64,000 bases of DNA, taken from contig CAMWYJ010000002.1 of assembly GCA_947178445.1 (NCBI GenBank), positions 96,479 to 160,478 of the forward strand, given 5' to 3'. A model generated the notes under the pieces. The model made no database searches. It was given only the letters and a program-made list of their open reading frames with translations, and was not told the origin of the DNA. Made by a program: the position numbers and the translations under genes. Of this stretch, positions 38,340 through 61,684 are shown one piece after another; the stretch's first letter is position 1, and each line of letters starts with the position of its first letter. The DNA comes from an uncultured Clostridium sp. (GTDB lineage Bacteria > Bacillota > Clostridia > Lachnospirales > Lachnospiraceae).

Positions 38340-38342
38340 TTT

Positions 38343-40148: not shown

Positions 40149-40279
40149 TAGCACTGCACCTCTTCAAAATACATCTCTACTAAGTGTTTATCCAATTGAC
40201 CCCTTCATATATTACTGGAATATCTAGTCCCTCTCTTGTATCATATATATCATTCATATACATTACTTACAATAATATT

Positions 40280-42611: not shown

Positions 42612-43940
42612 CTATCTCTTCTTCTTAAATCTGTCACCATAAAATGTCTCTGTTGTCAATCTGTATGAAACCGGTCTTTTATATGATTCCAAATTTTCTT
42701 TACAATATTTTCTTAATTGTTTGATATAATCCCTGTTATTATTTTTATCTTCTACACAAATATTGGCAATAACACTTTGTCCTGTAATTGGATTTGCCTC
42801 ACCATAAACATATACATCTTTCACTCCATCAAAAGATAATAAAACACTTTCTATCTCATTTGGATATACTTTTTCTCCGCCTACATTTATTAAATCTGTA
42901 GTTCGACCCAATATTTTAAGATAATCCCCTTTTACCTCAACCTTGTCCTTTGTATTAAACCAGCCCTCTTCATCAAATGGAGATGGGGCATTCAGGTAAC
43001 CTATCATTGCGGATCTGGCTTTTATATATAAAATATCATCTTCTATTTTTGTTTCGTATCCCATGCCGCCTATTTTCATCCAAAGAGAATCTGAACTTTC
43101 CGACTTCGTAGACATAATGCCAATTTCTGATAAGCCATAAGTTTGTTTTAATCTCACATCTGGCAGAATTTTATGCAATTGCTTTAACGTCGACTCCGGC
43201 ATTGGTTCTGTACCATATGATATCATCTTAAGGCTGGATAAATCATATTTCTCATAAACTCTGCTCAAAAGAATCATATTGATAAATGTCGGTGATGTCG
43301 GTAAAAGCTCTATATCATACTTCTCAATAATTCCACACACTTCTTCGGGACTTCTGGTTTTCAAGGTAGCAATCATACACCCGCTTGACAATGAATGCAT
43401 GATTGTATTAAATCCACCTATATGATCAAACAGCAAAAATGTAACTGTACGTAAACATTTTCCCGGCTGATTAAATTTTTCTATTAAATAAGTTAAATCA
43501 TGCAACGCTGCTTTTGGCTCTCCAGTTGTTCCAGATGAAAATAGTATTAACCCCGGAGCTTTTTTTTCAATCAAGCCACGCAGCATTTCATGTTTCACTT
43601 CATAGTCAGTTTTCCTAATCTCTATATCCTCTTGCAAATTGATGACATATTGACTTTCAGAAATTCTAATATAATTCTCTTTTCCTTTAATCGTTTTCGA
43701 TATAGGAACGATGATAACATCACGCTCTATTAAAGCAACCAAAAACGCAATTGACACAGGTGTAAACTCTGCTATAATAGAAACAACATTTCCTGAAGAA
43801 ATATTGTTCTCCTCCAATAACTTTGTAACCTTTTGATATTCCTCATAAATATCTCCAAAAGTATATTCTTTATTATCTGAAACTACAGCCAGTTTGTCCT
43901 TGTTCTCTCTTAATCGATCTAATATATAATCTATCTTCAT
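42612..43940 (-). CDS. AMP-dependent adenylating enzyme (acyl/aminoacyl-carrier-protein ligase-like)
   Basis: AMP-binding signature LFSSGTTGEPKA, YGLSE and GEKVYPNEIE. 442 aa (short C-domain). ATGA overlap with the upstream SDR. Confidence 0.82.
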   Translation of the reverse strand: MKIDYILDRLRENKDKLAVVSDNKEYTFGDIYEEYQKVTKLLEENNISSGNVVSIIAEFTPVSIAFLVALIERDVIIVPISKTIKGKENYIRISESQYVINLQEDIEIRKTDYEVKHEMLRGLIEKKAPGLILFSSGTTGEPKAALHDLTYLIEKFNQPGKCLRTVTFLLFDHIGGFNTIMHSLSSGCMIATLKTRSPEEVCGIIEKYDIELLPTSPTFINMILLSRVYEKYDLSSLKMISYGTEPMPESTLKQLHKILPDVRLKQTYGLSEIGIMSTKSESSDSLWMKIGGMGYETKIEDDILYIKARSAMIGYLNAPSPFDEEGWFNTKDKVEVKGDYLKILGRTTDLINVGGEKVYPNEIESVLLSFDGVKDVYVYGEANPITGQSVIANICVEDKNNNRDYIKQLRKYCKENLESYKRPVSYRLTTETFYGDRFKKKR

Positions 43941-44632
43941 CGATTCACCCCTCCTAAATATATAATCTGCCCTGTTATAAAGTCACTGCTAGGATTTAGG
44001 TAAAAGTCAATTACATTGATTATATCCTTAAACTCACCAAAACGATGAATTGCCTGGTTATCTAACAACTTATTCAATTTCTCTTCTGGTACTTTTGCAA
44101 TCAAATCTGTTTTTATTGGAGTTGGTCCTACAGCATTAACTGTAATACGAAACATTGCCAATTCTTTAGCCAATATTTTGGTCATGCTTTCAACTGCCGC
44201 TTTAGAAGAAGAATAGGCCATTTCTCCCTCTAAATTAAATGGTACTGCTACTGTTGAAAAATTAACAACTCTTGGATGCTCAGATTTCTTAAGCAAAGAG
44301 GCAAATGCTCGGATGCAAATCAGTCCTCCAAGATAATTGACCTCCATCAAATGCTTTGCAGTCTCGATAGGGGTCATCATAAAATGATTCATTGCTGCTA
44401 TTCCCGCATTGTTAATCAAAACGTCAACAAATTTGTAGTCTCTACGTACCTGCTTTGCAAAATCATTCACTTGCTTTTCATCACATACATCTACAACAAA
44501 ATGCCTGTACTGATCATGCACAATTTGACTTTCATGACGACTACACCCTATAACGGTATGCCCTTTCTCAAGATAATACTGAGCAATATTATATCCAATT
44601 CCTTTATGTGTACCTGTAATCACAATATTCAT
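43937..44632 (-). CDS. SDR-family oxidoreductase
   Basis: VITGTHKGIG cofactor motif, NNAG, YSSSKAA catalytic motif. Confidence 0.85.
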   Translation of the reverse strand: MNIVITGTHKGIGYNIAQYYLEKGHTVIGCSRHESQIVHDQYRHFVVDVCDEKQVNDFAKQVRRDYKFVDVLINNAGIAAMNHFMMTPIETAKHLMEVNYLGGLICIRAFASLLKKSEHPRVVNFSTVAVPFNLEGEMAYSSSKAAVESMTKILAKELAMFRITVNAVGPTPIKTDLIAKVPEEKLNKLLDNQAIHRFGEFKDIINVIDFYLNPSSDFITGQIIYLGGVNR

Positions 44633-44634
44633 TA

Positions 44635-44925
44635 TTATTCTACTTCCTTTATAAGTTCAGCAATAAATTCCTCTAATGTCTCAAATGAATAGAACGGACT
44701 TCTTTCTCTTGAAAAAGCCTTATCTGACACAATCCTTATATCCTTATCCAATTCATCTGAAATCCGTTCTTCAATAATCGTAATAAACGTAACAAACTCC
44801 ATAGAATCAATAGCGGCCTTTTTTCCTATCAACCTGACATCTTCGGAATATACCAGCTGTCTATCGTCATCCAATTGCTCATTTAATTCCTCAATAGAAT
44901 CCATTATAATCTCTTTAACCGTCAT
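44635..44925 (-). CDS. Carrier protein (ACP/PCP-like)
   Basis: 96 aa and acidic, with an IDSMEFVTFI Ser motif. Abuts the SDR and adenylase genes. Confidence 0.6.
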   Translation of the reverse strand: MTVKEIIMDSIEELNEQLDDDRQLVYSEDVRLIGKKAAIDSMEFVTFITIIEERISDELDKDIRIVSDKAFSRERSPFYSFETLEEFIAELIKEVE

Positions 44926-44964: not shown

Positions 44965-45366
44965 TTATGACTCTTTAATAAACTTTAGAAATTCATCGTA
45001 ATCTCTTATATAATCTTCTTCCTTATATACTTCGGAAGCCAAACACATTAGTACCGCATCTGCAGAAAAATCATACATTTCTCTCCACATATTATTAGGT
45101 ACATATAAGCCTTCATATGGCTTTTCCAGAAAAACTTTTTTCTTTTCTCTTCCGTTGTCCAATAATATCTTGCATGAACCATGAATACATATTAATATCT
45201 GCTCTAAAGTTTTATGTGCATGATATCCCCGAACTACACCTTCACCCGTATCATACATATAATAAACTCGTTTAATTTCAAAAGGAATATCATTAAATTC
45301 CTCTAAAGCAACAAGCTGTCCTCTCTCATCACCATGCTGCTGAAATTGATATTTTATAATCTGCAT
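44965..45366 (-). CDS. FdtA/WxcM-like cupin (sugar 3,4-ketoisomerase family)
   Basis: HGDERGQLVALE..PFEIKRVYYMYD..RGYHAHK..Q is the WxcM/FdtA signature. Confidence 0.78.
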   Translation of the reverse strand: MQIIKYQFQQHGDERGQLVALEEFNDIPFEIKRVYYMYDTGEGVVRGYHAHKTLEQILICIHGSCKILLDNGREKKKVFLEKPYEGLYVPNNMWREMYDFSADAVLMCLASEVYKEEDYIRDYDEFLKFIKES

Positions 45367-45434: not shown

Positions 45435-46523
45435 CTAAAAATTGTTAATTACTCTAATAACTTGTTTTATTTCATCTTCTGACATTCCTACCCATAATGG
45501 TAGAGACAATTCAGATTCTGCTATATACTCAGAAACAGGAAAGTCGCCCCTTTTATAATTCAAATCTTTATATGCCTCCTGCAAATGAACAGGTATCGGA
45601 TAATGAATCTGTGTCATAATGCCATTCTTCTGCAAATATTCCTGTAATTGTTGGCGTTCATCACAAAAAACTGTAAAAACATGCCACACATTATCCTTTT
45701 CTGAATACTGAGGTAACTTCAGCTTTGGATTATGAATATGCTCTATATACATCTGCGCAATTCTGCATCTCTCCAAATTCCAAGCCTCCAAACAAGCAAG
45801 CTTAACTCTCAAAACTGCTGCCTGTATCTCGTCCATACGGGAATTAAATCCTGCATAAATATGATGATACTTTTTCATGGAACCATAATTGCGTAATGCT
45901 TTCGCTTTATTATATAGATTCTCATCATTGGTTGTAATGGCTCCTGCATCTCCCAATGCGCCAAGATTCTTACCTGGGTAAAAACTAAATCCCGCAGCAT
46001 CTCCAACTGATCCTGCCATTTGGTTGTCCCTCACTGCACCATGTGCCTGCGCAGCATCTTCTATTACAATTAAATTGTATCTTCTTGACACCTCATTAAT
46101 TGCATCCATATCTGCCATTCTTCCATACAGATGCACTGCAATAACTGCCTTTGTACGCTCTGTTATTTTTTCTTCAATTAACCCGGGATCCATATTACAG
46201 GTATCTTCACATACATCTACCAACACAGGGGTCGCCCCTGCATAAGACACCGCTAATGCAGTTGCAATAAAAGTATTGGCCGGAACAAGTACTTCATCAC
46301 CCTTTCCTATCCCATATGCCTCTAAAATAATATGTAATGCATCTAACCCATTACCAACACCTAAACAATACCTGACTCCTATATAATCAGCATACTCCTT
46401 TTCAAATCTTTCCAGCTCTTCACCGAGAATATACCAGCTATTATCCAAAACAGAATTAATTGCCTGATTCATTTTCTGTCGAATGGGTGCATTGAGTTTT
46501 TCTAAGTTCAAATACGGTATCAT
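45435..46523 (-). CDS. DegT/DnrJ/EryC1-family sugar aminotransferase (FdtB-like)
   Basis: [13 protein letters not shown] start (ATG at 46523) and the PLP-lysine block [15 protein letters not shown]. Confidence 0.85.
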
Positions 46524-46527
46524 AAAA

Positions 46528-47340
46528 TCACTCTCCCATCCACATCGGCAAAAAATGTATAATACCATCTATGGCATCTTTATACTTCTTACATTTTAAT
46601 AATTCCTTTAATTGTGCATAAAAGAAAAACTTCCCTCTACTCTTTAAAAAAGATGAGTTATTTGATGTCCATAAGGATGTGCTGGAAATTCTATACCGTA
46701 CCAGCGTTTCATCTAACAGCACCACCTCATTTCCACTTACAATATAATTAAATAAAAACGGATAATCATCCAACATTGGATATCGAATATCGAATCCGCC
46801 AATCCCTTTAATATATTCTGTCAAATAAAAGTTACTTGCCGGTCCTGCTATAATATTCTCTATAATAATATTGTCATACTGCTCCTGCCATCCCATTTTA
46901 ATAATCTTATAACCTTTTTCAAAATACCGTTTCATTTCATTCACACGGGCGATATTGGAACCAAATGGCTCTACCTTGCAAAATACAGCATTTAGTGACT
47001 TCTCTTTTGCAAAATAATATTTTTTTTCAATTGCCTGCTCCAATAAAATATCATCTCCCGCTATTATCTGGATATATTTCCCCTGTGCCTGCCATATACC
47101 AATATTGCAATTCTTTGTCACTCCATGATTCTGTTTTGCTGAAAGTAATCTTGACTTCTCAAATCTTTTAGAGTTTGTCCGTAACCATTCTTTTACGATT
47201 TCAACCGTATTATCTGTTGAATGATCATCTGATACAATCAATTCCAAATTTTCATATGTTTGATTTTTGATACTTTCCAATGTTTCAATAATGGTTTTAC
47301 ATGAATTATATGTAACAACCACTACGCTAATAAGCTCCAC
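46528..47340 (-). CDS. Family 2 glycosyltransferase
   Basis: [28 protein letters not shown] motifs. Confidence 0.85.
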
Positions 47341-47370: not shown

Positions 47371-47874
47371 CTATATTTCAAATACAACCTCTTCCAAAGA
47401 AATTACTGTAGTTTTTGTTTTCTTAGATAACAGCTCTTTTATCTCATCATATGCGAAAGTTGCTGTTACAACAATCACATCGACTGTTTCTATTTCATCA
47501 TCTATTGTAATCATTTTAAGTTCCGGATCAGTACAAACCGCATTTTGATCAATTGCATATCTTACCTCAATATTAGTCTGTTTTAAATCCTCATATAACC
47601 GGCTGCCCATTCCGCCCATTCCATATATGGCAATCGTTTTATATCCATTTCGTATAAAATATTCTTCCAATGACCGACCTTCCTGCTTTATTGCCATCCA
47701 TTGATTCAGCATATTATAATAACCCCTAAATTTATCAACATCCTTATTGGCAGTCTCTGCCAATTTTTTCACTGCTATTCCCATTATTGCTACACCACCA
47801 ATGAAACCTGCTGCTAATGATACTCCAAATCCCTTTTTCACTATTGATTTCCTCCTCTTTATCTTCTTTTCCAA
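47371..47874 (-). CDS. Membrane-anchored protein with a Rossmann-like domain, unknown function
   Basis: N-terminal TM, then TIAIYGMGGMGSRLYEDL. Similar in style to the N-terminus of the 630-aa protein at 58184-60076. Confidence 0.5.
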   Translation of the reverse strand: MEKKIKRRKSIVKKGFGVSLAAGFIGGVAIMGIAVKKLAETANKDVDKFRGYYNMLNQWMAIKQEGRSLEEYFIRNGYKTIAIYGMGGMGSRLYEDLKQTNIEVRYAIDQNAVCTDPELKMITIDDEIETVDVIVVTATFAYDEIKELLSKKTKTTVISLEEVVFEI

Positions 47875-48831
47875 TTATACTACTACAGTTCCGTACACAA
47901 TCCCACAAGAAAGCCCAACACCAAATCCACACAGTAATACCCTGTTTTTCCCATCCTGAAGCAATTCAGAGTTCACAGTAAGTGTTACCGGAATAGAAGC
48001 GCCAGCTGTATTACCATACTCTCCGTAAGATGTCAGTACTTTATCTCTATTCAGGCCACAAAAATCTGCTACATTGTCCACAATATACTTTTGTGCCTGA
48101 TGAAATACATAATAATCAATATCTTCATCCGTAAGCTTCGCCCGTTCCATAAATTCCTTCACATAGCCCACAACCTGACTAATTGTATAATGAAACACTT
48201 CCATACCATCCATGTGAAAATAATCGTTATGATCTTTCATAAATATTTTATCATACTTCTGTCCCATAGATTTCTGCATATAGAATATCTTATTATCTGG
48301 TACAACCTCAAGACCGGTTGCTGTTCCTGCGTCACTAAACATCATCTTTGACTGGATATCATCCTCTTTCAGGCATTGTGTTACCGTGTCTCCTACCAAC
48401 AAAAGCATCTTACTTCCTAATTCCATACTGGCCAACAGACTACTCACAATATGTAATCCTACTGTATATCCAGAACATCCCAGATTCACATCAAATACAA
48501 TACAGTTTTCCCCAATATCAAGCCGCTTCTGAATAATAAAGGCTGTTGACGGCATGACACAACTTGGAGTCTGCGTAATTAAAATAATTCCTCTAATCTC
48601 GTCTTTACTCCATTGTAATCTTGCAAGCAGACGCTTTGCAGCTTCCACACACATATCCTCAGCGGACTCGTCGTCTTCTGCCACGTAACACGATTGAATA
48701 CCTGTAAGTTTTATCTGACTTGCCACTTTACGCTCACCAAGCTGTTTATTATATTCACAATTATCAATTTTTCTTTTCGGAACTACTGTCTCAATTCCCC
48801 GGATTGCTATATTGTTATACTCGCTAAACAT
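47875..48831 (-). CDS. KASIII (FabH)-like 3-oxoacyl-ACP synthase/acyltransferase
   Basis: Cys-His-Asn triad contexts LGCSGY, VFHQAQ and YGNTAGASIP. Confidence 0.8.
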   Translation of the reverse strand: MFSEYNNIAIRGIETVVPKRKIDNCEYNKQLGERKVASQIKLTGIQSCYVAEDDESAEDMCVEAAKRLLARLQWSKDEIRGIILITQTPSCVMPSTAFIIQKRLDIGENCIVFDVNLGCSGYTVGLHIVSSLLASMELGSKMLLLVGDTVTQCLKEDDIQSKMMFSDAGTATGLEVVPDNKIFYMQKSMGQKYDKIFMKDHNDYFHMDGMEVFHYTISQVVGYVKEFMERAKLTDEDIDYYVFHQAQKYIVDNVADFCGLNRDKVLTSYGEYGNTAGASIPVTLTVNSELLQDGKNRVLLCGFGVGLSCGIVYGTVVV

Positions 48832-48875
48832 ATTTCACTCTCCGATTTTTCTTCCTATCCATCTACATTTCCTAT

Positions 48876-49622
48876 TTAGTATTCTATACCACCACTGACT
48901 ACAACTAATTCACCAGTCATAAATTTTGCATTATCTGATAATAAAAACTCTGCCAGATATGCTATTTGTTCTGCTTCTATAATTCCCAAAGGCTGCCATG
49001 TCTGTGCTGATTCCAGATAATTCTCAATCTCCTGAACTCCAACCATCAACATTGTCGTTTTTACACAGGCGGGAAGAATTGCATTCACTCGAATCTTTCT
49101 CCTCATAAATTCCTTTGACATCGTTTTGACTACAGAATTTACCGCTGCTTTTGAGGCCGAATACTGTGACTGACCTTTGCTATTAAGCACGGATGCAATA
49201 GAAGAAATTGCAACCAGGGAACTTCCGTCATTAGAATATTTTTTCATGGAAAAATACTTACCTAATTCAAACAATGCAAAACAATTTATTCTCATTGCCT
49301 GTTCCATTTCTTCAATATTATTTGTTTTTATCACACTAGTAAATGTAACACCGGCACAATGCACTAATCCATCTAACTTTAAGCTGTTTTCTTTACAATA
49401 GCGGAATATATCTTCCATATTTTCCAAATCCATTAAATCATATGAAAACGGAAAAATATGGTCAGGATTTTCCTGATGCAGCTTTTCCAGCCGCTCCTTA
49501 TTCCTTGCAACTGCTACAATCTTTGCCCCTGCCATGACCAACTGTTTCGTTATCGCCTCTCCAATGCCTGAAGTTGCTCCAGTCACTAATATTATTTTGC
49601 TGTCCATATTTGTATCTAACAT
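48876..49622 (-). CDS. SDR-family ketoreductase (FabG-like)
   Basis: VTGATSGIGEA and YSASKAA motifs. Confidence 0.85.
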   Translation of the reverse strand: MLDTNMDSKIILVTGATSGIGEAITKQLVMAGAKIVAVARNKERLEKLHQENPDHIFPFSYDLMDLENMEDIFRYCKENSLKLDGLVHCAGVTFTSVIKTNNIEEMEQAMRINCFALFELGKYFSMKKYSNDGSSLVAISSIASVLNSKGQSQYSASKAAVNSVVKTMSKEFMRRKIRVNAILPACVKTTMLMVGVQEIENYLESAQTWQPLGIIEAEQIAYLAEFLLSDNAKFMTGELVVVSGGIEY

Positions 49623-49692
49623 ATCACATTCCCCATTCTATCATCCACATATAACGCAGTCCTCATTGGCATTGACAAATGCCTATACTTCT

Positions 49693-50709
49693 TTAATATG
49701 AATAGATCCGATCCGTCTCTAACATTTTCAAACACATATTGCTATCAATGCTCATATATACTGCACTCCATGCCAGTCCCACTCCAAATCCACACATTAA
49801 TACCCTTGCTCCATCCACAAATTTATCTTGATTAATACACATTGTTAATGGAATAGATGCACTGGAAGTATTACCATAATCCTTATAGGAAACCAGCATC
49901 TTTTCGTCAGGAATATTCATTATATCTTTCATATTATCTAAAATCATTTTCTGAGCCTGATGAAAAACATAATAGTCAATATCTTCATCCGTTATATGTA
50001 TATCACTCATAAACTTCTGAATGCTATCCACCACATCATTAATTGCAAATGAAAAAACAGCATCCCCTTTCATCCTTGGCAACTGTCCAAACGCTTTGCT
50101 AATATCCATACAACCTTCTGCATTTACATATTGCATACCATATATCTTGGGTGCATCAGATTTTTCTATGGCAGTCGCAGATATAGCAGACCCAAACAGC
50201 AGCCAGTCAGAGATATGTTCCTCCCATTCTCCATTTTGCTTCCATTCAGGATTATATTTACAAAGATCTCCCGCCAGCAGGATTGCTCTGTCTCCAGTAT
50301 TCTGCAGCAAATTCGCTATCGTCTGAATCCCCGTTGTATAACCTGAACAGCCCAGATTAATATCAAATACTGTCATTTCTTTTTTAAAATGAAAGGCTTT
50401 GTGTACAAACATGGCCGTAGCAGGTAAAAACATGTCCTGAGATTGTGTGACTAATATGAGAATATCTATACTATCCGCACTCCAGCCTGTTTCATCCAAA
50501 AGCTGCCGGACTGCTTCAATTGCCAAATCAGAGGTTTTTTGTTCTCCCCAAATTACTCTTCTTCGTTCAATACCAGTGAGTTTAACATGTCTTTTAAGCT
50601 TCTTTTCACCCATAATCTCTGCATATTGAGCTTGGTTACATTCCTCCTCACATTCAGGTACCGCTGTTACAATCCCTTTAATTGCAATATCATCAAATAC
50701 AGTTAACAT
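49693..50709 (-). CDS. KASIII (FabH)-like 3-oxoacyl-ACP synthase/acyltransferase, second paralogue
   Basis: LGCSGY, VFHQAQ and YGNTSSASIP triad contexts. Confidence 0.8.
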   Translation of the reverse strand: MLTVFDDIAIKGIVTAVPECEEECNQAQYAEIMGEKKLKRHVKLTGIERRRVIWGEQKTSDLAIEAVRQLLDETGWSADSIDILILVTQSQDMFLPATAMFVHKAFHFKKEMTVFDINLGCSGYTTGIQTIANLLQNTGDRAILLAGDLCKYNPEWKQNGEWEEHISDWLLFGSAISATAIEKSDAPKIYGMQYVNAEGCMDISKAFGQLPRMKGDAVFSFAINDVVDSIQKFMSDIHITDEDIDYYVFHQAQKMILDNMKDIMNIPDEKMLVSYKDYGNTSSASIPLTMCINQDKFVDGARVLMCGFGVGLAWSAVYMSIDSNMCLKMLETDRIYSY

Positions 50710-50724
50710 GAAAACTATCCACCT

Positions 50725-50943
50725 TTACTCTAAATAATCACAAATATCCTTTACTGTCTGGAAACTCTTTAATTCCTCCACTGTAATGGACTTGTTGTAT
50801 AACTTTTTAATAGTGGCCATCAAAGATAATTTTGTAAGAGAATCCCATTCCTCAACATCCTCCAGATTTGCGTTGATATCTAATTCTCCCTCATCCAACT
50901 CCATTAAGTCCTCCAACAATACAATCTTTTCCTCTGTCGTCAT
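50725..50943 (-). CDS. Acyl carrier protein
   Basis: 72 aa and acidic, with an EWDSLTKLSL attachment motif. Confidence 0.8.
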   Translation of the reverse strand: MTTEEKIVLLEDLMELDEGELDINANLEDVEEWDSLTKLSLMATIKKLYNKSITVEELKSFQTVKDICDYLE

Positions 50944-51050: not shown

Positions 51051-51632
51051 TTATAGTACCAGCATATCTTCTAACGATTCTTCATCAATAAAGCTCCTCG
51101 CTATCTTTGCTATTCTACTGTTCTCATCCCACATCCGTAAAGGATAACTAAACTGGTACACATCATGTTTTACTCCATCTAATATCACATGATCTTTTAG
51201 AATTTTCTCTACTGTACCACCCATCCGGATCTGCATGTTCAATGCATCTTTATTGGTGTCAACAACCTCTGCACATATTTTCTCCACCTTCAAACATGTA
51301 TATTCAATGACACCAATCATATAATACATGATTGTTCCATATCCCATCATCTGATAAGTTTCATCAATCAAATAATTTCCATTCGTCACCGTATGCTCTT
51401 TTGGATTCACTTCATATTGAAACACACCAAATGGTTCATTATCTAAGAAAAAAACAAATAACCCTCTATTTGGATCCATTTTCAATTTATCTATATATTT
51501 TCTATGTTCCTCCTCTGTAATAATATGTGTTTGGAACATATTTCTACGGACAAATTCCTGATTTCTCCATATACGGATATCCGCTATTGTTTTCTCATCC
51601 AATCTATTCAACTCCACTGCTCTGAACTTCAT
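51051..51632 (-). CDS. pseH: GNAT acetyltransferase, PseH-like
   Basis: ATG at 51632 (MKFRAVEL) follows GGGGGGAG. IRIWRNQEFVRRNMFQTHIITEEEHRKYIDKL resembles the PseH N-terminal pattern. Lies directly downstream of pseI. Confidence 0.65.
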   Translation of the reverse strand: MKFRAVELNRLDEKTIADIRIWRNQEFVRRNMFQTHIITEEEHRKYIDKLKMDPNRGLFVFFLDNEPFGVFQYEVNPKEHTVTNGNYLIDETYQMMGYGTIMYYMIGVIEYTCLKVEKICAEVVDTNKDALNMQIRMGGTVEKILKDHVILDGVKHDVYQFSYPLRMWDENSRIAKIARSFIDEESLEDMLVL

Positions 51633-51646
51633 AGCTCCCCCCACTC

Positions 51647-52696
51647 TTATTCTACCATATTCCACGACAAGGGAGTGCCTTTTTTTAAGTCTGTACGGGC
51701 AGTACTTCCCAATATTTTATCGTAATACATCGTATGCAGCCCCTTTCCCGGACGAATCGACTTTATATTATCTGGTGTAAATTTTTCTCCTTTTTTCATA
51801 TCTTTTACTACGTACAAAGAGCGTGTTCCATTGCGGGCACCTTTCTGATTATCCGTTAACTCAAAGGTAGTTTTTCCCAGTGCGTCTTCCAAATTGCGAA
51901 TCTGCCGAATCATATCTGTAAATTCCTCTATTTCCATAGAAAATGCAGCATCCGGTCCTCCATCCTCCCTTTTGATTGTAACATGCTTTTCTATTATCTT
52001 TGCACCCAAGGCAACCGCCCCCAATGCAACTTCACTACCCAACGTATGGTCTGATAATCCTACCATACAATCAAATGTATTCTTCATCAATGGTATCGCC
52101 TTTAAATTCATATCCCCATAAGGACATGGATAAGCCGAAGTGCATTTCAGTAAAACGACATTTTCATTTCCCTCTTCCTTACAAACTGCTAAGGCTCTTT
52201 CTATATCCTCCAAATAAGCCGTACCTGTCGATATAATAACCGGTTTCCCTGTTCTGGCAATCCTTTGAAGCATCGGTATATCATTTATTTCATAAGATGC
52301 CACCTTAAATGCTGGCATGTTTATTTCACACATAAAATCAACTGCGGTCAAATCAAAGGGGGAAGAAAAACAGCTTAAGCCAAGACTATTCGCATATTTT
52401 ACTAAATCCTCCTGCCATTCCCACGGTGTATATGCTTTCTGATATAAACTATATAAAGTCTCTCCATCCCACAATCCACCATGTATTTGAAATTCAGGAT
52501 TATTACAATCTATTGTAATTGTATCTGCTGTATAGGTTTGCAGTTTCACTGCATCCGTACCAGAATCCTTTAACCGATATATAATTTCCTTTGCTCTATC
52601 AAAGCTCATCAAATGATTGGCTGACATTTCTGCAATAACATATACTGGTGAAGTCTCACTTATCATACGATTGTCAATGTGAATCTCTTTCTTCAA
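51647..52696 (-). CDS. pseI: Pseudaminic acid synthase (NeuB family with a SAF domain)
   Basis: IAEMSANH, KLQTY, VGLSDHT and C-terminal IRPG.GL SAF blocks. Its context with pseH, pseF, pseG, pseC and pseB argues for Pse rather than Neu or Leg. Confidence 0.85.
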   Translation of the reverse strand: MKKEIHIDNRMISETSPVYVIAEMSANHLMSFDRAKEIIYRLKDSGTDAVKLQTYTADTITIDCNNPEFQIHGGLWDGETLYSLYQKAYTPWEWQEDLVKYANSLGLSCFSSPFDLTAVDFMCEINMPAFKVASYEINDIPMLQRIARTGKPVIISTGTAYLEDIERALAVCKEEGNENVVLLKCTSAYPCPYGDMNLKAIPLMKNTFDCMVGLSDHTLGSEVALGAVALGAKIIEKHVTIKREDGGPDAAFSMEIEEFTDMIRQIRNLEDALGKTTFELTDNQKGARNGTRSLYVVKDMKKGEKFTPDNIKSIRPGKGLHTMYYDKILGSTARTDLKKGTPLSWNMVE

Positions 52697-52731: not shown

Positions 52732-53412
52732 TTATGTAATCTCAAATCTATTAAGAATATTTTCTTTTCCATGTCCCGGAAAAACAATTGTATCTTTTGA
52801 AAGTCCTTCCAGAAATGGTTTTGTAATGAGCCGATACTCTTTTTTACTTCCTCCTGGCAATCTTGTAATAACGGCATTATCCGCTACAAGGCTATCTCCC
52901 GTAAACACATATTGTTCTTCCACCAATATACATATACTTCCTTTGGAATGACCTGGTGTTTCTATCAATTGAATATCTAGCCCCTGCCATTCAAAGCCAT
53001 ATCTTCCATCAAATCCGATATCTGCATAGCATGAATAATTTTCATCAAAAACTTCTTCCGCTATTCTTACTGTTTCTGCATCTTTGTCTATTAACAGGCT
53101 TTTAAAATATGCAGATAAATTTTTCAAAGGATCTGTTAAATATTCTTTTGCATGATTCCCACATAAAACAGTACAAGACCAATGCTCTCTAAAAAAATTC
53201 ACACCCGATATATGATCAAAATGTTCATGTGTCAATATGATCCATATTTCCTCAACTGTCTTCTGTTCCAAAAATTCTACCGCATCTTGACAAATATGAG
53301 GATCAATAATTAATGCAGATTTATTCTTAACGATTAAATACATATTAGAATTAATCGGTTCCAAAATATATTTATGTATTTCCAGTTCATTTACCTTGAA
53401 TTCACTTAACAT
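52732..53412 (-). CDS. MBL-fold metallo-hydrolase
   Basis: THEHFDH motif and downstream TPGHSKGS. Overlaps pseF by 11 nt. Confidence 0.8.
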   Translation of the reverse strand: MLSEFKVNELEIHKYILEPINSNMYLIVKNKSALIIDPHICQDAVEFLEQKTVEEIWIILTHEHFDHISGVNFFREHWSCTVLCGNHAKEYLTDPLKNLSAYFKSLLIDKDAETVRIAEEVFDENYSCYADIGFDGRYGFEWQGLDIQLIETPGHSKGSICILVEEQYVFTGDSLVADNAVITRLPGGSKKEYRLITKPFLEGLSKDTIVFPGHGKENILNRFEIT

Positions 53413-54109
53413 TTTCTGATACCATTATTTTATATTTCATTTCTGCAATCTGCCAGTCTTCTTCGTTATCTATATCCTGAACCTCTAATTCTGAAACAAT
53501 CAGCGGAAGGGATTTTTTAATTTTTACATCATTTAATACATTGTCTACCCTCATAACATAGAATTGTCCACAATCATGATAAACAGGCTCCAAGTCCTGA
53601 GAACGGCTGCTGGCATACTCTGGAAACTGGTACTGAAGAAAATTCTCCTGAATCACAAATGCTCTCTGTGGCGGAAAAGAAAAACGGACAACTGGCGTTA
53701 CTGCATCTGCATGCTCACTTTCCATCAATTCAACTGCCTCTTTAAGCTTCTTCGCTGTTACAAATGGTGCTGTCGGATAAATGCAAACTGCTATGTCAAA
53801 ATGCTGTCCCCGTTTTTCATATTCCGTAAATACTTCCTTCAATACATCATTCGTACCGGCATAATCATTTGAAGTTTCTTCACTCCGCATAAAAGGGACA
53901 TTTGCTCCAAACTTTCTTGCAATTTCTGCAATCTCTTCGTCATCCGTAGACACCATTACCTCATCAAACAAACCGGAAGCAAGTGCCGCTTCAATAGAAT
54001 ATTGTATAATGGGTTTGCCGCAAAACTCTTTAATATTTTTTCTTGGTATTCTTTTACTGCCTCCCCGGGCAGTAATTACTGCTATTGATTTACTCATATC
54101 TCCATTCAT
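53402..54109 (-). CDS. pseF: Pseudaminic acid cytidylyltransferase
   Basis: AVITARGGSKRIPRKNIKEFCGKPIIQYSIEAA..VSTDDEEIA is the CMP-nonulosonate synthetase signature. An alternative start at 54097 is possible. Confidence 0.8.
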   Translation of the reverse strand: MNGDMSKSIAVITARGGSKRIPRKNIKEFCGKPIIQYSIEAALASGLFDEVMVSTDDEEIAEIARKFGANVPFMRSEETSNDYAGTNDVLKEVFTEYEKRGQHFDIAVCIYPTAPFVTAKKLKEAVELMESEHADAVTPVVRFSFPPQRAFVIQENFLQYQFPEYASSRSQDLEPVYHDCGQFYVMRVDNVLNDVKIKKSLPLIVSELEVQDIDNEEDWQIAEMKYKIMVSENVK

Positions 54110-54170: not shown

Positions 54171-56255
54171 TTACACTGGATTAAGAACTGTTTCCAACAA
54201 ATCATTCTCCATTAAAATATCAATAATAGAAATCAACTCTTCTGTTGATACACCAATGATATCACTAATTTTGATCAAATCATTTTTTCCATCTGCATAA
54301 GTTAAAAAATTCGTCATATTCCGTGTTGAGGAAGCACTACCCTTCTGGCTTAAAGTAGAATATAAACCTCTCTTTCCTAGCTGAGGTTCACAATAACACT
54401 TTACTTTATAATGATAATTGTACTCTAATGTTTGAATGCATTTTTTCATTAATATAAACGCACCTTCCAGCCCTTCTTCTGAAATTAAATCCAGATTATC
54501 TTCAGAAGTATGGTATTCCGGATACTCCCCGTATTTTGAACGACAAACTGCGCAAACAGGCAGGTCAATACCTGGCGCATTAAATTGTCTTTCATCTGAA
54601 CCTCTCTGCAGAAAACTATATTTTTTATAATTTGGATAATGATATGACAATACATTCTGTAATAATCTATCCGTTAATGTATTTGCATATTTACTTTCTA
54701 CATAAGAATATTCCCGATTATCACCTACGCAGGATAATACAAAGCCCGCAATAACCTTTTCTTTCAAATTTTGATTCTCATAATTTTTACTCAACCAGGC
54801 AATTGATCCAATTGTCTCTGGTACAAAAATAAACCGATAACTGTATCTACGATGCTTTAATCCTGCAATATACTTGGCAAGAAAAGTTGCTACGGCAGGA
54901 CCTGAACATTCATTATTAGCCATAGATGGGTGACACAAATATGTAGAAATCAAGATTTCCTCTTTTAATTCTCCTGGAAAATATGCTTCACCATAGCTCA
55001 AAGAACCATTGTCTTTAAAATCGCTTTTTATCACTAAATGATATTTTCCTTCTTCCAATGAATCAAATTGTCTTTTACTCATGCAGAATCCTGATCGTGT
55101 TTCATAATAAGATGTCACATACGGAATGGCATCTGGCTGCTCTTCCTGCACATATACATATTTATCCAGTTCCTTCAAATCTACCCACATATCTATTGGT
55201 GCCGAGTACCCTACCACATGTAAATTATTTTTTTTAAAATCTACTATTTTTTCTCCTTTTTCATTCTCAATATAAGCCTTCTCTATATTCCATTCATCAG
55301 GCACTTCCCAATCATACACCTTTGTTCCTGATTTTATTTCAAACAACTCTAACTGGGATAAATATGATTTTACAATCTGTAATCGATTCCTTAATCCCTC
55401 ACCAGTAATACTACTGCATAACGTATACAGCTCTTTCGCCATTCCATACATTAATGTACCTACTGACAGTGAATTGCCCTGTCCGATATGAGTGCAGACC
55501 TTTCTAGCCATATTACTTAAAATATCTTCTTTTATAATTGGATAGGTTTTAGCAAAATCAATCTTAGCAAACTTCAAACCATTAATATATATATTATCTT
55601 GTGCTCCCTTTTTTATAAAGTCATCCTCGAAAAAATCGACTTCTTCAATGACTTCATACCAATAAGAACGCACAAGCATAGAATAAACTCTTTTATCAGT
55701 ATTTCCAAATTCATCCGTATAATCTGCTCTAAAATTTTTCATATATCTATATGGTACATTTTTCATCAACTGCTCTTCCACAAAATGAACAAATGTAAAA
55801 GAATGTTTGAATTCTACATTAATAATTATATTTGTAACATGATTCTCCAAAAAATAGGCAAATGGCGAATCATGACCAAATGCACTCTTATTATCCATCC
55901 CACACAATAATTCCTGATCTCGTCCCCACACCGCAAATGAATATATAGGATGTTTCGTCCTCTTAAAATCTGATCTTTCTAATGCAGTTTGAGATAATGC
56001 CCCAACTTGAGAAGAAGTATTCTTATAATCAAATGCCTCCCCCTTACACCAATCCCAATTATAAGTGGGAAAAATTACCGTACCTTCCTCTCCTACTGCA
56101 TCAATAAATGCATCTATCAAATCATTTAAATCAACGTTTTCTTCATGTTCTCTACATATTTTTACCAAAGATTTTACAGCAGAACTGACAAAAATCTTAT
56201 CACCTTTCTCTATGCCTAAAGATATTGGAATATCTTGTAATTTTATATAGTCCAT
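54171..56255 (-). CDS. Fusion protein: AAC(3)-like N-acetyltransferase domain plus DUF4910/M28 aminopeptidase-like domain
   Basis: The N-terminus (LGIEKGDKIFVSS..AVGEEGTVIFPTYNW) resembles the aminoglycoside N3-acetyltransferase fold. The C-terminal about 400 aa (..CHPSMANNECSGPAV..YRFIFVPETIGS..) resembles aminopeptidase-like DUF4910 proteins, from memory. Confidence 0.55.
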   Translation of the reverse strand: MDYIKLQDIPISLGIEKGDKIFVSSAVKSLVKICREHEENVDLNDLIDAFIDAVGEEGTVIFPTYNWDWCKGEAFDYKNTSSQVGALSQTALERSDFKRTKHPIYSFAVWGRDQELLCGMDNKSAFGHDSPFAYFLENHVTNIIINVEFKHSFTFVHFVEEQLMKNVPYRYMKNFRADYTDEFGNTDKRVYSMLVRSYWYEVIEEVDFFEDDFIKKGAQDNIYINGLKFAKIDFAKTYPIIKEDILSNMARKVCTHIGQGNSLSVGTLMYGMAKELYTLCSSITGEGLRNRLQIVKSYLSQLELFEIKSGTKVYDWEVPDEWNIEKAYIENEKGEKIVDFKKNNLHVVGYSAPIDMWVDLKELDKYVYVQEEQPDAIPYVTSYYETRSGFCMSKRQFDSLEEGKYHLVIKSDFKDNGSLSYGEAYFPGELKEEILISTYLCHPSMANNECSGPAVATFLAKYIAGLKHRRYSYRFIFVPETIGSIAWLSKNYENQNLKEKVIAGFVLSCVGDNREYSYVESKYANTLTDRLLQNVLSYHYPNYKKYSFLQRGSDERQFNAPGIDLPVCAVCRSKYGEYPEYHTSEDNLDLISEEGLEGAFILMKKCIQTLEYNYHYKVKCYCEPQLGKRGLYSTLSQKGSASSTRNMTNFLTYADGKNDLIKISDIIGVSTEELISIIDILMENDLLETVLNPV

Positions 56256-56273: not shown

Positions 56274-56687
56274 CTAATTTATATTTTTACTTAAATTCGG
56301 TAATTTAACCAAAGCTTCTCCCTCGATTACCTTAACCCCTTGTCCATTGAACACATCTGTACGCAATTTCGCTTTTCCCTTTTCTAAAAATTCAATAATT
56401 TCTATTTGGAATTCAACTTCTTCATTCACATATACTGGACTTGAAAATTTTAAATTTTGTCCCATATATATAGTCCCTTCCCCAGGAAACTGTGTTCCCA
56501 AAATTGCAGATATTAGAGATGCACTTATCATTCCATGTGCTATACATTTTCCAAACGGTCCCGATTTTGCAACATTTTCATTCAAATGAAGAGGATTATT
56601 ATCTCCTGAAATTCTTGCAAAATCTTCCACCAATTCCTTAGATATCAATTTTTTAACTCGTATCATATCGCCCAAAGAATACTCCAT
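56274..56687 (-). CDS. MaoC-like (R)-specific hydratase/dehydratase (hot-dog fold)
   Basis: FARISGDNNPLHLN and AHGM motifs; 137 aa. Confidence 0.75.
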   Translation of the reverse strand: MEYSLGDMIRVKKLISKELVEDFARISGDNNPLHLNENVAKSGPFGKCIAHGMISASLISAILGTQFPGEGTIYMGQNLKFSSPVYVNEEVEFQIEIIEFLEKGKAKLRTDVFNGQGVKVIEGEALVKLPNLSKNIN

Positions 56688-60076: not shown

Positions 60077-60097
60077 AACTCCTATTCATCTTATATA

Positions 60098-61676: not shown

Positions 61677-61684
61677 ATATCCTC

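Follow-up and report, generated by a model that had tools for sequence, protein, structure and literature searches.

A four-gene cassette in the stretch of DNA analysed here (the window, 64,000 nucleotides) is probably a dedicated unit, distinct from housekeeping fatty acid synthesis, in which a short acyl chain is assembled on a carrier protein; the product would then pass to an amino sugar on the flagellin glycan. By analogy with characterised relatives, the product is most likely a short hydroxy-acyl decoration of that sugar. The window holds a Lachnospiraceae flagellin glycosylation island of roughly 40 kb.

The four-gene cassette

The cassette consists of the following genes.

50725..50943, minus strand: ACP72, carrier protein of 72 aa (PP-binding, E 9.7e-8; EEWDSL motif containing the WDSL serine)
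49693..50709, minus strand: KASIII-A, 338 aa, paralogue of the 'acp-KS-KR' type (ACP_syn_III_C, E 3.9e-26)
48876..49622, minus strand: SDR248, FabG-like ketoreductase of 248 aa (adh_short_C2, E 1e-48; KR domain, E 5.8e-19)
47875..48831, minus strand: KASIII-B, 318 aa, FkbH-associated paralogue (ACP_syn_III_C, E 8.9e-22; ACP_syn_III, E 1.9e-9)

The first-pass annotation had placed an ACP, two KASIII enzymes and a ketoreductase at 47875-50943 on the minus strand, and domain matches confirmed all four. SDR248 carries the motifs TGATSGIG and YSASK, the latter containing the catalytic Tyr-x3-Lys. KASIII-A and KASIII-B are 38% identical to each other. An alignment bore out the Cys-His-Asn contexts noted before in the two enzymes, with no loss in either: the equivalents of C112, H244 and N274 of E. 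coli FabH are kept in NLGCSGY, FHQAQ and YGNT(S/A), respectively. Together with G209, F304 and G305, these residues were invariant (100%) across both orthogroups, KASIII-A and KASIII-B, and across every related cluster. Among the orthologous loci compared, KASIII-A was invariably located between an ACP and a ketoreductase gene.

The genes could in principle be the type II fabH, fabG and acpP of housekeeping fatty acid synthesis, lying near pse genes by chance. Their domain families are identical to those of FabH, FabG and AcpP, and the gene inventory used to reject this reading is that of the window. However, the NCBIfam cut-offs for FabH, FabG and AcpP are far above all cassette scores: KASIII-A and KASIII-B scored 172.6 and 190.1 bits, respectively, against a FabH cut-off of 249, and SDR248 was under every FabG cut-off. 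The KASIII paralogues show 20-25% identity to E. coli FabH, and its CoA-contact residues W32, R36 and R151 are replaced in them. Domain searches of the ORFs of the cassette's operon found no fabD, fabF, fabZ, fabI, fabK or acc genes. As many as six KASIII copies per glycan locus occur in relatives, and in Pseudomonas genetic evidence links homologous cassettes to acylation of the flagellin glycan (PMC3927599). The housekeeping reading is close to refuted already, and we give it almost no weight. The FabH scores below cut-off and the Pse, Maf and flagellin context agree with the earlier view of a dedicated module in a nonulosonic-acid/flagellin glycosylation locus.

The flagellin glycosylation island

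The genes surrounding the cassette were identified as follows.

56740..57723, minus strand: PseB (TIGR03589, 531 bits, cut-off 408)
56274..56687, minus strand: MaoC-type (R)-hydratase/dehydratase (MaoC_dehydratas, E 4e-20; hydratase-2 motif SGDNNPLH)
54171..56255, minus strand: 694-aa fusion of AAC(3)-like N-acyltransferase, DUF4910/DUF2172 aminopeptidase-like and HTH_47 domains (Pfam)
53402..54109, minus strand: PseF (TIGR03584, 290.7 bits, cut-off 205.7)
52732..53412, minus strand: MBL-fold hydrolase, possible thioesterase (Lactamase_B, E 1.8e-20; GloB-like matches)
51647..52696, minus strand: PseI (TIGR03586, 469.5 bits, cut-off 340)
51051..51665, minus strand: PseH-like GNAT, immediately upstream of ACP72 (TIGR03585, 93.1 bits, the same as the cut-off)
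47371..47874, minus strand: p167, N-terminal helix and mini-Rossmann domain (C2185-like_N; AF2 model, pLDDT 84)
46528..47340, minus strand: GT2 glycosyltransferase (Glycos_transf_2, E 9e-28)
45435..46568, minus strand: DegT-family sugar aminotransferase, FdtB-like (DegT_DnrJ_EryC1, E 1.4e-120; under the PseC cut-off)
44965..45366, minus strand: FdtA-type 3,4-ketoisomerase (FdtA, E 1.1e-53)
44635..44925, minus strand: p96, probable second carrier protein (AIDSM motif; no Pfam match)
43937..44632, minus strand: SDR231, second FabG-like reductase (51% identical to the L016 homologue)
42612..43940, minus strand: AMP-dependent ligase, acyl-ACP/CoA synthetase-like (AMP-binding, E 5.9e-34)
41445..42584, minus strand: PseC (TIGR03588, 511.9 bits, cut-off 423.5)
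40367..41425, minus strand: PseG (TIGR03590, 205 bits, cut-off 153.6)
38343..40154, minus strand: FkbH-family protein, predicted glyceryl-ACP loader (TIGR01686, 293 bits, cut-off 146.7; FkbH_N)
38103..38339, minus strand: ACP78, carrier protein directly downstream of FkbH (GWDSL motif; ACP models, E 1e-10)
37136..37723, minus strand: GNAT195, candidate N-acyltransferase linked to FkbH (Acetyltransf_3, E 2e-13)
29215..30000, minus strand: flagellin of 261 aa, probable glycosylation target (Flagellin_N, E 1.3e-28; Flagellin_C, E 1.7e-13)
23110..24837, minus strand: Maf-type flagellin nonulosonic-acid glycosyltransferase (MptE-like, E 1e-35; Maf_flag10_N, E 5e-8; PseD-domain)

The PseB/C/H/G/I/F set is complete, with all members at or above the equivalog cut-offs of the TIGR models, and the scores of PseI and the PseH-like GNAT uphold the location of the cassette directly downstream of pseI-pseH. 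From about 57723 to 36061 all genes share one strand and are spaced by 0-107 bp, except for 212 bp before FkbH, and no intergenic terminator-like sites were found within the four-gene cassette. A single transcription unit across about 57723-36061 is therefore plausible from the sequence. The MaoC gene reported before was confirmed, while its membership of the same transcription unit is plausible only. The first-pass annotation had an inventory that lacked FkbH-ACP78, the fusion of AAC(3)-like and Cj1295-like domains, a third carrier system (p96, SDR and AMP-ligase), the flagellin and Maf.

Several of these neighbours recur in other loci. A MaoC gene adjoins FkbH in L012 and L013, where a distant GNAT (23% identity to GNAT195) is next to ACP-FkbH. 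The 694-aa fusion, whose aminopeptidase-like part is of the kind described for Cj1295, matched PDB 3K9T (E 6e-107) and YokD/AAC(3) structures, and L051 has a full-length homologue adjoining both PseB and a two-KASIII cassette. Of 87 loci, 10 had an MBL-fold hydrolase together with the cassette. A search of the PDB with p167 gave no significant match; in most of the orthologous contexts a C2185-like_N protein is encoded beside KASIII-B or close to it. The GT2 gene is syntenic behind KASIII-B and p167 in L001 and L092. The DegT protein is 66% identical to its L001 counterpart, and FdtA shares 80-90% identity with the L001 and L013 homologues; no FdtC-type acetyltransferase accompanies the FdtA/DegT genes of the window. 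The p96 gene and the SDR and AMP-ligase genes beside it keep a syntenic arrangement in L016, whose AMP-ligase homologue is 44% identical.

KASIII-B and the proposed acyl pathway

A scan with the KASIII-B alignment yielded 79 loci from many phyla, and linkage was counted over 87 non-redundant loci. An SDR or ketoreductase was linked in 72 of these, an ACP or ACP-like ORF in 83, a sugar aminotransferase in 37, an LbH transferase in 32, and a flagellin or Maf gene in 12; 40 loci had two or more KASIII. Judged by these sequence comparisons, the window cassette is a member of a widespread ACP-KASIII-KR family of glycan loci. The layout 'KS acp KS KR' was found in Paenibacillus, Bacteroidota and Proteobacteria, and one Paenibacillus locus (L066) combined it with Maf, NulO genes, LbH and an aminotransferase. 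At least 12 Lachnospiraceae loci have, upstream of acp-KS-KR, a member of an uncharacterised 330-aa family, and most of these loci are without a KASIII-B orthologue.

KASIII-B is a lineage-specific paralogue of Lachnospiraceae, and the widespread 'second KS' (WfpC-like cluster 2) is not its orthologue. Its companions in relatives are FkbH-ACP and often a small Rossmann protein, GT2, DegT and FdtA. FkbH-ACP81 immediately preceded KASIII-B in 6 of 7 orthologous contexts, while in the window the FkbH-ACP78 pair is 8 kb downstream of the cassette and not adjacent to KASIII-B. The linkage of the cassette with pseI and pseH holds for the window and is not kept in relatives, where KASIII-B goes with FkbH-ACP. 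The window FkbH contains the HAD motif DLDNT and the motif MSCR and matched PDB 3SLR (E 4e-67). Its identity to the FkbH proteins at the syntenic position in relatives is only about 33%.

In the proposed pathway, KASIII-A would condense a small primer with malonyl-ACP72, and SDR248 would reduce the 3-oxo group to give a 3-hydroxyacyl-ACP, such as 3-hydroxybutanoyl-ACP, both by analogy with VioS/VioR/ACP and WfpC-F. In glycerate-primed PKS loading modules the order is FkbH-ACP, then KS; this order and the FkbH-ACP-KASIII-B synteny suggest that KASIII-B is a second condensing enzyme adding one C2 unit. Its primer would most likely be ACP-bound, either glyceryl-ACP from FkbH/ACP78 or the C4 product. 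ACP72 and SDR248 may be re-used in the second round, leading to a C5-C7 acyl-ACP with several hydroxyl groups, such as 3,5-dihydroxyhexanoyl or 3,4,5-trihydroxypentanoyl, which the MaoC protein could dehydrate. Against this pathway count the lack of a malonyl transferase gene among the genes of the island, the separation of FkbH-ACP78 from KASIII-B, and the low identity of the window FkbH to its syntenic counterparts. In the least certain step, a separate transferase would move the chain as an amide to the amino sugar of the flagellin glycan. The candidate transferases are the PseH-like GNAT, GNAT195 and the AAC(3)-like domain of the 694-aa fusion. The candidate acceptors are N5 of Pse, once deacetylated by the Cj1295-like domain, N7 of Pse, and a dTDP-3-amino-3,6-dideoxyhexose from FdtA/DegT, whose genes are directly downstream with no FdtC-type acetyltransferase.

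KASIII-B might instead be a non-condensing, KASIII-like acyltransferase, a role that we regard as possible though rather unlikely. This follows the first-pass annotation, which suggested that one paralogue may transfer the acyl group made by the other. KASIII-A, SDR248 and ACP72 would then make a hydroxyacyl-ACP, or FkbH and ACP78 a glyceryl-ACP, and the cysteine of KASIII-B would be loaded from the ACP and pass the acyl group either to a nucleotide-activated amino sugar, at its amine, or to a hydroxyl of glyceryl-ACP, so that the two ACP-bound units are joined. CerJ, ChlB6 and PtmR are KASIII-like acyltransferases and provide a precedent. In Lachnospiraceae stacks KASIII-B is the only KASIII without its own ketoreductase, which fits a non-elongating role and shared use of a ketoreductase equally well. 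A preceding FkbH-ACP also suits a transferase. LbH transferases, frequent in Proteobacteria and Bacteroidota cassettes, are missing from 17 of 19 Lachnospiraceae-type two-KASIII loci. KASIII-B, p167, GT2, DegT and FdtA are contiguous in the window, L001 and L092, and no recognisable N-acetyltransferase was found beside FdtA in the window and L001. However, L092 has a weak Acetyltransf_6 protein behind FdtA, the window offers two GNATs and the AAC(3)-like domain, and the 330-aa family may be the missing transferase. The Cys-His-Asn triad and nearby motifs are fully conserved, including the Asn required only for decarboxylative condensation, and the nearest solved structures by sequence were of the FabH type, with CerJ and DpsC not among the matches listed. 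A condensing role of KASIII-B is thus preferred.

In tetronate clusters, 'glycerate utilisation' involves three components: FkbH, its dedicated ACP and an enzyme resembling FabH. The same functions are linked in the relatives. FkbH, ACP and KASIII-B could thus join with a 3-oxoacyl-ACP from KASIII-A to make a tetronate- or butenolide-type small molecule unrelated to the glycan. This is very improbable: every context examined was a one-strand sugar operon among pse, Fdt, GT and Maf/flagellin genes, the ketoreductase neighbouring KASIII-A would remove the 3-oxo group needed for a tetronate, and none of the PKS, acyltransferase/hydrolase pair and export genes typical of such clusters was seen.

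Comparison with known acylation systems

In P. syringae, vioS, vioR and acp serve N-(3-hydroxybutanoyl) viosamine on flagellin; the modification was lost in vioR and vioB mutants, and the roles of vioS and acp were assigned from homology (PMC3927599). The Pseudomonas loci (vioA, vioB, vioS, vioR, acp, vioM, vioT; orfA-orfE) resemble the window in a contiguous ACP, KASIII and 3-oxoacyl-ACP reductase and a linked DegT-type aminotransferase within a flagellin glycosylation locus, and orfB-D of a-type P. aeruginosa are a documented member of the same cassette family. L084, a flagellin glycosylation island of P. paraeruginosa with flgK, flgL-like, DegT, ACP, KASIII, KR and LbH genes, is homologous to the viosamine island of P. 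syringae. Its KASIII is 29-34% identical to those of the window and belongs to the same wider family; both paralogues of the window had sequence cluster 3 as their nearest neighbour. However, the Pseudomonas loci have a single KASIII, an LbH acyltransferase (VioB/OrfE) and no FkbH, while the window has two KASIII, no LbH, FkbH-ACP at another place in the island and a Gram-positive host. In Pseudomonas a rhamnose glycan carries viosamine as the sugar, whereas the window context is Pse or Fdt.

In F. psychrophilum, wfpC and wfpE (both KASIII), wfpD (ACP), wfpF (KR) and wfpG (PglD-like) were proposed to make 3,5-dihydroxyhexanoyl on Qui2NAc4N of the O-antigen, with two KASIII for two elongations and transfer by the separate PglD-type enzyme (PMC6519341). 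The window cassette likewise has two different KASIII with one ACP and one ketoreductase. However, the second KASIII of Flavobacterium belongs to cluster 2, unlike KASIII-B, so the analogy is limited to architecture; a PglD-type transferase is present there and FkbH is not. A short C4-C6 hydroxyacyl product, suggested before for the window, would fit the 3-hydroxybutanoyl (PMC3927599) and 3,5-dihydroxyhexanoyl (PMC6519341) groups of these relatives.

Compared by gene inventory, Cj1295-Cj1304 of C. jejuni, also part of a Pse flagellin island, resembles the window in its aminopeptidase-like, N-acetyltransferase, FkbH, KASIII and extra ACP genes. The aminopeptidase-like and AAC(3)-like functions are fused in the window and separate in C. 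jejuni (Cj1295 and Cj1296/7, the latter of which we take to be AAC(3)-like); acpP3 is presumably the name of a further ACP gene in this region. A ketoreductase and a second KASIII were not reported there. The Campylobacter fabH and acpP paralogues mentioned in the first-pass annotation agree with the annotation of cj1303 as fabH2 and Cj1299 as acpP2, with cj1302 as an FkbH-domain gene (PMC3229698, PMC6109747, PMC7099621). C. jejuni Pse carries an N5 2,3-di-O-methylglyceroyl amide, a C3 group without chain extension, despite Cj1296/7, annotated as an N-acetyltransferase, being out of frame (PMC3068675, PMC7099621). This unextended group beside FkbH, fabH2 and ACP genes suggests that an FkbH-linked KASIII can be a transferase, and speaks for such a role of KASIII-B.

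The Aeromonas pse-island set shares three functions with p96, SDR231 and the AMP-ligase at 42612-44925, but LuxC/LuxE are absent from the window and KASIII is absent from the Aeromonas set (PMC7874193). Glycerate-primed PKS and tetronate systems resemble the relatives in the order of FkbH, dedicated ACP and thiolase-fold enzyme seen in six orthologous contexts, whereas here the proteins are discrete, encoded in a glycan operon, with a KASIII-type KS and no PKS. Since ACP-KASIII-KR cassettes have already been described in Pseudomonas and Flavobacterium, the window cassette is less new than was implied before; it differs from these cassettes in that its second synthase is linked to an enzyme that loads glycerate.

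The cassette and its flagellin glycosylation island

The window, which comes from a Lachnospiraceae MAG, is a flagellin glycosylation island. It encodes a flagellin, a Maf-type transferase and a complete pseudaminic acid (Pse) pathway, the six enzymes of which scored at or above the NCBIfam equivalog cut-offs. PseB, PseC, PseG, PseI and PseF reached 531, 512, 205, 469.5 and 291 bits against cut-offs of 408, 424, 154, 340 and 206 bits, respectively, and the PseH-like GNAT was borderline with 93.1 bits at a cut-off of 93.1. PseI and the PseH-like GNAT are encoded directly upstream of a cassette of four genes.

Flagellin, Maf and cassette genes
23110-24837, Maf-type transferase
29215-30000, flagellin, 261 aa
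50725-50943, minus strand, ACP72, acyl carrier protein of 72 aa (PP-binding, E 9.7e-8; EEWDSL motif)
49693-50709, minus strand, KASIII-A, the paralogue of the acp-KS-KR type, 338 aa (ACP_syn_III_C, E 3.9e-26)
48876-49622, minus strand, SDR248, FabG-like ketoreductase (KR) of 248 aa (adh_short_C2, E 1e-48; TGATSGIG and YSASK motifs)
47875-48831, minus strand, KASIII-B, the FkbH-associated paralogue, 318 aa (ACP_syn_III_C, E 8.9e-22)

The first-pass annotation had described these four genes, and all of them were found on the minus strand where it placed them, as was the MaoC protein that it reported at 56274-56687. ACP72, KASIII-A and SDR248 form a contiguous ACP-KASIII-KR trio with gaps of 15 and 70 bp, and only 44 bp separate SDR248 from KASIII-B. 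KASIII-A and KASIII-B share 38% identity, and KASIII-A is 100% identical to an NCBI protein from a 'Lachnospiraceae bacterium' MAG. Both paralogues were said to keep the Cys, His and Asn contexts of a condensing KASIII, and this was borne out (NLGCSGY, FHQAQ and YGNT). An alignment of 140 sequences revealed no catalytic-residue loss: the equivalents of C112, H244 and N274 (E. coli FabH numbering) were 100% conserved in both orthogroups, and G209, F304 and G305 were likewise invariant.

Both KASIII proteins stayed below the FabH cut-offs. KASIII-A and KASIII-B scored 172.6 and 190.1 bits with NF006829 (cut-off 249) and 137.6 and 164.8 bits with TIGR00747 (cut-off 292), respectively. They were 20-25% identical to a manually entered E. 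coli FabH reference sequence, in which C112, H244 and N274 mapped correctly. W32, R36 and R151 are acetyl-CoA contact residues of E. coli FabH, and their equivalents were replaced in both proteins by K/R/S, L/Y and I/L/Y, respectively. No fabD, fabF, fabZ, fabK/I or acc partner was found within the 64-kb window. Judged by these features, the cassette is very probably not housekeeping fatty acid synthesis.

Several neighbors had not been noted in the first-pass annotation. An FdtA, DegT and GT2 trio lies immediately downstream of KASIII-B, and two GNATs and an MBL-fold hydrolase belong to the same one-strand gene array. Two sugar aminotransferases, DegT377 (of the DegT type) and PseC, are linked to the cassette. 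No ORF in the window encodes an LbH acyltransferase (the VioB/PglD-type family). Judging by their spacing, the genes may form one long operon; promoter and terminator scans of the window were uninformative, with promoter counts at the level of shuffled sequence and every terminator-like site of the minus strand located inside a gene. The MBL-fold hydrolase (52732-53412, minus strand) is encoded between pseF and pseI, and its best NCBIfam matches were glyoxalase II and SolJ. Homologues were encoded together with KASIII cassettes at 10 of the 87 loci compared, so this protein may act as an acyl-ACP thioesterase.

The head of the flagellin glycosylation operon (58184-63387, minus strand) encodes two TagF-like glycerophosphotransferases and two TagD-like cytidylyltransferases. 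It also includes a 630-aa protein (58184-60076, minus strand) whose C-terminal part weakly matched Capsule_synth and the BFO_1060 (Tannerella) glycosyltransferase family. These genes hint that glycerol phosphate may be a substituent and that nonulosonic acid may have a second transferase. At the other end, a 795-aa protein without a Pfam or NCBIfam match (24816-27203, minus strand) overlaps the start of the Maf gene. An MmdA-like carboxyltransferase just past Maf (21254-22825, minus strand; 773 bits, below the cut-off of 999) is probably housekeeping and could have a role in malonyl or methylmalonyl supply.

Distribution and relationships of the KASIII enzymes

A KASIII-B alignment was scanned against one genome per species (GTDB representatives), which yielded 79 loci from Bacillota, Pseudomonadota, Bacteroidota and other phyla. 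There was no close KASIII orthologue among these representatives, the best match having 46% identity. Together with 16 loci fetched around close homologues, and after removal of near-duplicates, 87 loci were obtained, and their ORFs were annotated by BLAST against the window proteins. An ACP was present in 83 of the 87 loci, a linked ketoreductase in 72, a DegT-type sugar aminotransferase in 37, an LbH acyltransferase in 32, and a flagellin or Maf gene in 12. At least two KASIII genes were found in 40 loci and at least three in 11. The window composition of two KASIII, one ACP and one KR recurred in at least 16 loci from outside the Lachnospiraceae. The LbH transferase was missing from 17 of the 19 Lachnospiraceae-type two-KASIII loci and present in the other 2.

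Average-linkage clustering on pairwise identities was carried out with 139 KASIII sequences from the fetched loci and E. coli FabH. Cluster 3 comprised the broad acp-KS-KR enzymes, including the KASIII of a Pseudomonas flagellin island, and a separate broad cluster, cluster 2, held the second KS. Both KASIII-A and KASIII-B belonged to cluster 5, a Lachnospiraceae-type radiation, to which cluster 3 was the nearest outside cluster. KASIII-B was on average 28% identical to cluster 2. Because KASIII-B clustered with KASIII-A, it is not a second synthase of the WfpC type known from Flavobacterium psychrophilum; on pairwise identity, it is predicted to be a lineage-specific duplicate.

Members of the KASIII-A orthogroup were always flanked by an ACP and a KR. 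In L018 and L023 (Eubacterium sp. MAGs), L004 and L014, ACP-KASIII-KR trios were stacked two to five times, and L023 carried up to six KASIII in one locus. Among the KASIII of the stacked loci were longer proteins (540-577 aa) whose C-terminal extension matched SDR models in some cases. The stacks resemble a mini-PKS of discrete proteins in which each module would serve one step, without iteration.

FkbH association and the proposed role of KASIII-B

The window also encodes an FkbH-family protein and a second carrier protein, neither of which appeared in the first-pass annotation.

FkbH and its carrier protein
38343-40154, minus strand, FkbH-family protein (TIGR01686, 293 bits, cut-off 146.7; DLDNT HAD motif)
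38103-38339, minus strand, ACP78, carrier protein of 78 aa, 3 bp downstream of FkbH (GWDSL)

The ACP78 ORF is smaller than usual ORF size filters. The pair (38103-40154, minus strand) is followed by a glyoxalase-fold protein, a GNAT and a pyruvyl transferase, and the 212-bp gap upstream of FkbH contains a promoter-like site, TTGAAA-17-TATAAT.

In six of seven non-redundant orthologous contexts, KASIII-B came directly after an FkbH (588-605 aa) and an ACP (80-81 aa). The window was the exception, with KASIII-B located 7.7 kb upstream of FkbH and not adjacent to it. Its FkbH-ACP78 is a different pair, about 33% identical to the counterparts in relatives and next to a GNAT, an arrangement that resembles the order acp-GNAT-FkbH-MaoC in L012 and L013. 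In relatives, the six-gene block ACP-KS-KR-FkbH-ACP-KS was conserved while its flanks varied among NeuB and Maf, phosphonate genes, LicD and choline genes, and FdtA/DegT/GT2. The persistence of the block despite changing flanks argues that both halves work together. The order FkbH-ACP-KS is that of glycerate-primed PKS loading modules.

We propose, with good confidence, that ACP72, KASIII-A and SDR248 would convert malonyl-ACP and a small primer into 3-hydroxyacyl-ACP. With lower confidence, KASIII-B would be a second condensing enzyme that takes an ACP-bound primer, either FkbH-derived glyceryl-ACP, which fits the loading order, or a C4 intermediate. Re-use of ACP72 and the reductase would give a polyhydroxy C5-C7 acyl-ACP. 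The final amide bond, to Pse N5, to Pse N7 or to the 3-amino sugar made by FdtA/DegT, would be formed by a GNAT or the AAC(3)-like domain. KASIII-B has bulky pocket residues (M87, V142 and F205), while KASIII-A has S/T/P at position 205; these bulky residues would suit a small primer and lend weak additional support to the condensing role.

The main rival is that KASIII-B is itself the acyltransferase, or joins two ACP-bound units. KASIII-B alone among the KASIII has no reductase of its own and is tied to FkbH-ACP, LbH transferases are lacking in Lachnospiraceae loci, and the Campylobacter product has no chain extension, all of which would fit transfer. KASIII-like acyltransferases include CerJ, DpsC (triad Ser-His-Asp), ChlB6 and PtmR, and some of them keep Cys-His-Asn. 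The triad of KASIII-A and KASIII-B is Cys-His-Asn and is not altered as in DpsC, so that it is compatible with acyltransferase activity as well. However, KASIII-B strictly keeps the Asn that takes part in decarboxylation, and its nearest solved structures are FabH-type enzymes: the best PDB matches listed were 4EFI and FabH entries, and CerJ and DpsC were absent among the 60 matches listed. Other candidate transferases are also present. On balance, the condensing reading of KASIII-B is slightly ahead. The first-pass interpretation, that one paralogue may make a C4-C6 (hydroxy)acyl-ACP and the other may transfer it onto the 4-amino sugar intermediate or Pse, is partly supported: its first half agrees with the role proposed here for KASIII-A, and its second half is the rival just described.

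Among those other candidates is a conserved family of about 330-350 aa, whose genes directly precede acp-KS-KR in at least 12 loci of Lachnospiraceae (L001 5860-6852, L006 4785-5789, L007 3977-4987, L004 8591-9649, L092 1922-2941 and others). It had no match in Pfam or PDB, and distant homologues occurred in three Paenibacillus loci. The missing acyltransferase may belong to this family; in the window, the equivalent position is occupied by the PseH-like GNAT. Another, likewise absent from the first-pass annotation, is a 694-aa fusion (54171-56255, minus strand) in which a DUF4910/DUF2172 aminopeptidase-like domain and HTH_47 are joined to an N-acyltransferase that is AAC(3)-like. A full-length homologue with 28% identity over 719 aa was found in a Desulfomonilaceae MAG (L051, 8948-11119), where it adjoins PseB and a two-KASIII cassette, KS-acp-KS-KR. 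The fusion, together with the C. jejuni parallel described below, suggests an enzyme that may deacetylate Pse N5 and then re-acylate it.

A third carrier set (42612-44925, minus strand), also missing from the first-pass annotation, consists of p96, a probable carrier (44635-44925, minus strand) with an AIDSM motif and no Pfam match, a second SDR and an AMP-dependent ligase. Its syntenic counterpart is 16624-18964 of L016, a Schwartzia MAG, with identities of 28%, 51% and 44%, respectively, and the set is functionally like orf1-3 of the group II Aeromonas flagellin glycosylation island.

The gene after KASIII-B encodes p167 (47371-47874, minus strand), an N-terminal helix followed by a mini-Rossmann domain, C2185-like_N. 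A Foldseek search of its AF2 model (pLDDT 84) against PDB returned generic Rossmann matches only (best E 0.0099), and a likeness to the PglD N-domain was unsupported, with no significant PDB match. The C2185-like_N domain, present in the window and in L001, L007, L092 and L094, occurs alone in proteins of about 158 aa with an N-terminal helix, and in related loci it is fused to very different enzymes, namely LicD, Gtf3_C, WcbI, TylF and FkbM methyltransferases, and GT2. By eye, the N-terminus of the 630-aa protein at the operon head resembles it.

KASIII-B may, tentatively, represent a class of FkbH-coupled KASIII that handles glyceryl-ACP in nonulosonic-acid islands, using glycerate to prime a short polyhydroxy acyl chain or transferring glyceroyl directly to a sugar amine. 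If true, this would explain C. jejuni cj1299-cj1304 and its dimethylglyceroyl-Pse, the same logic would cover N-glyceroyl Pse in Tannerella, and the acp-KS-KR stacks of Lachnospiraceae would be explained as mini-PKS through which gut commensals vary the acyl groups of their flagellin glycans. Flagellins of Lachnospiraceae are prominent immune antigens of the gut, and to our knowledge their glycosylation has hardly been studied.

Comparison with known systems

Non-acetyl N-acyl groups such as 3-hydroxybutanoyl, glyceroyl and dihydroxyhexanoyl commonly serve as antigenic determinants when carried by nonulosonic acids and amino sugars of bacteria, and we know of no reconstitution of their biosynthesis. 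In 2017, the genetic basis of N-glyceroyl Pse in Tannerella was called 'a major challenge' (PMC5378307). The present comparison supplies mass increments to expect and testable enzyme sets, namely the six-gene block, its variant in the window, and the AAC(3)-like/Cj1295-like fusion.

L084, from Pseudomonas paraeruginosa ATCC 9027, is an a-type flagellin glycosylation island with the order flgJ, flgK, flgL-like, DegT, ACP, KASIII, KR, LbH and methyltransferase. Its KASIII is 29% and 34% identical to KASIII-A and KASIII-B, respectively. Its counterpart is the viosamine island of P. syringae, in which vioS (KASIII), vioR (reductase) and acp were assigned to the synthesis of dTDP-N-(3-hydroxy-1-oxobutyl)-2-O-methylviosamine, and deletion of vioR or vioB led to loss of the modified sugar from flagellin (PMC3927599). 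In F. psychrophilum, wfpC and wfpE (two different KASIII), wfpD (ACP), wfpF (reductase) and wfpG (PglD-like) were proposed as the source of the 3,5-dihydroxyhexanoyl amide of Qui2NAc4N, a structure established by NMR, and the published model has two condensations giving a C6 chain (PMC6519341). With these precedents, ACP/KASIII/KR cassettes that equip glycan amino sugars with a hydroxyacyl amide are already known. Unlike cassettes of the VioS/VioR/ACP and OrfB-D types, the window has no LbH acyltransferase. The Gram-negative 3-hydroxybutanoyl genes FdhC/QdhC and, in A. baumannii, psaG/psaH or lgaH/lgaI were not taken as the closest analogue because the reports involve no KASIII/ACP cassette (PMC4869667, PMC9676051). 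The papers on Geobacillus and Clostridium flagellin islands do not mention such cassettes.

The first-pass annotation had pointed to fabH and acpP paralogues in the Campylobacter flagellar glycosylation locus, and the literature agrees: cj1303 is fabH2 (PMC3229698), Cj1299 is acpP2 (PMC6109747), and cj1302 is an FkbH-domain gene (PMC7099621). No role for fabH2 or the extra ACPs of C. jejuni was assigned in the literature found. Flagellin of C. jejuni NCTC 11168 bears 7-acetamido-5-(2,3-di-O-methylglyceroyl)amino-Pse, which depends on the aminopeptidase-like Cj1295 and is made despite an out-of-frame N-acetyltransferase, Cj1296/7 (PMC3068675). The dimethylglyceroyl modification was missing in two strains, one without cj1302 and the other without cj1301 (PMC7099621). 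In C. jejuni, Cj1296/7, annotated as an N-acetyltransferase, and the aminopeptidase-like Cj1295 are encoded by separate neighboring genes, whereas the window encodes one fused protein; apart from that fusion, the inventory of the window is of the same kind as the C. jejuni set.

Cassettes of this type have been known since the work on Pseudomonas flagellin islands, and since acylation of a flagellin sugar by an ACP/KASIII/KR cassette is already published, the cassette extends known biology and is not a new kind. The FkbH-coupled second KASIII, the stacked trios of gut Lachnospiraceae and the parallel with C. jejuni offer a route to the question of nonulosonic-acid N-acylation.
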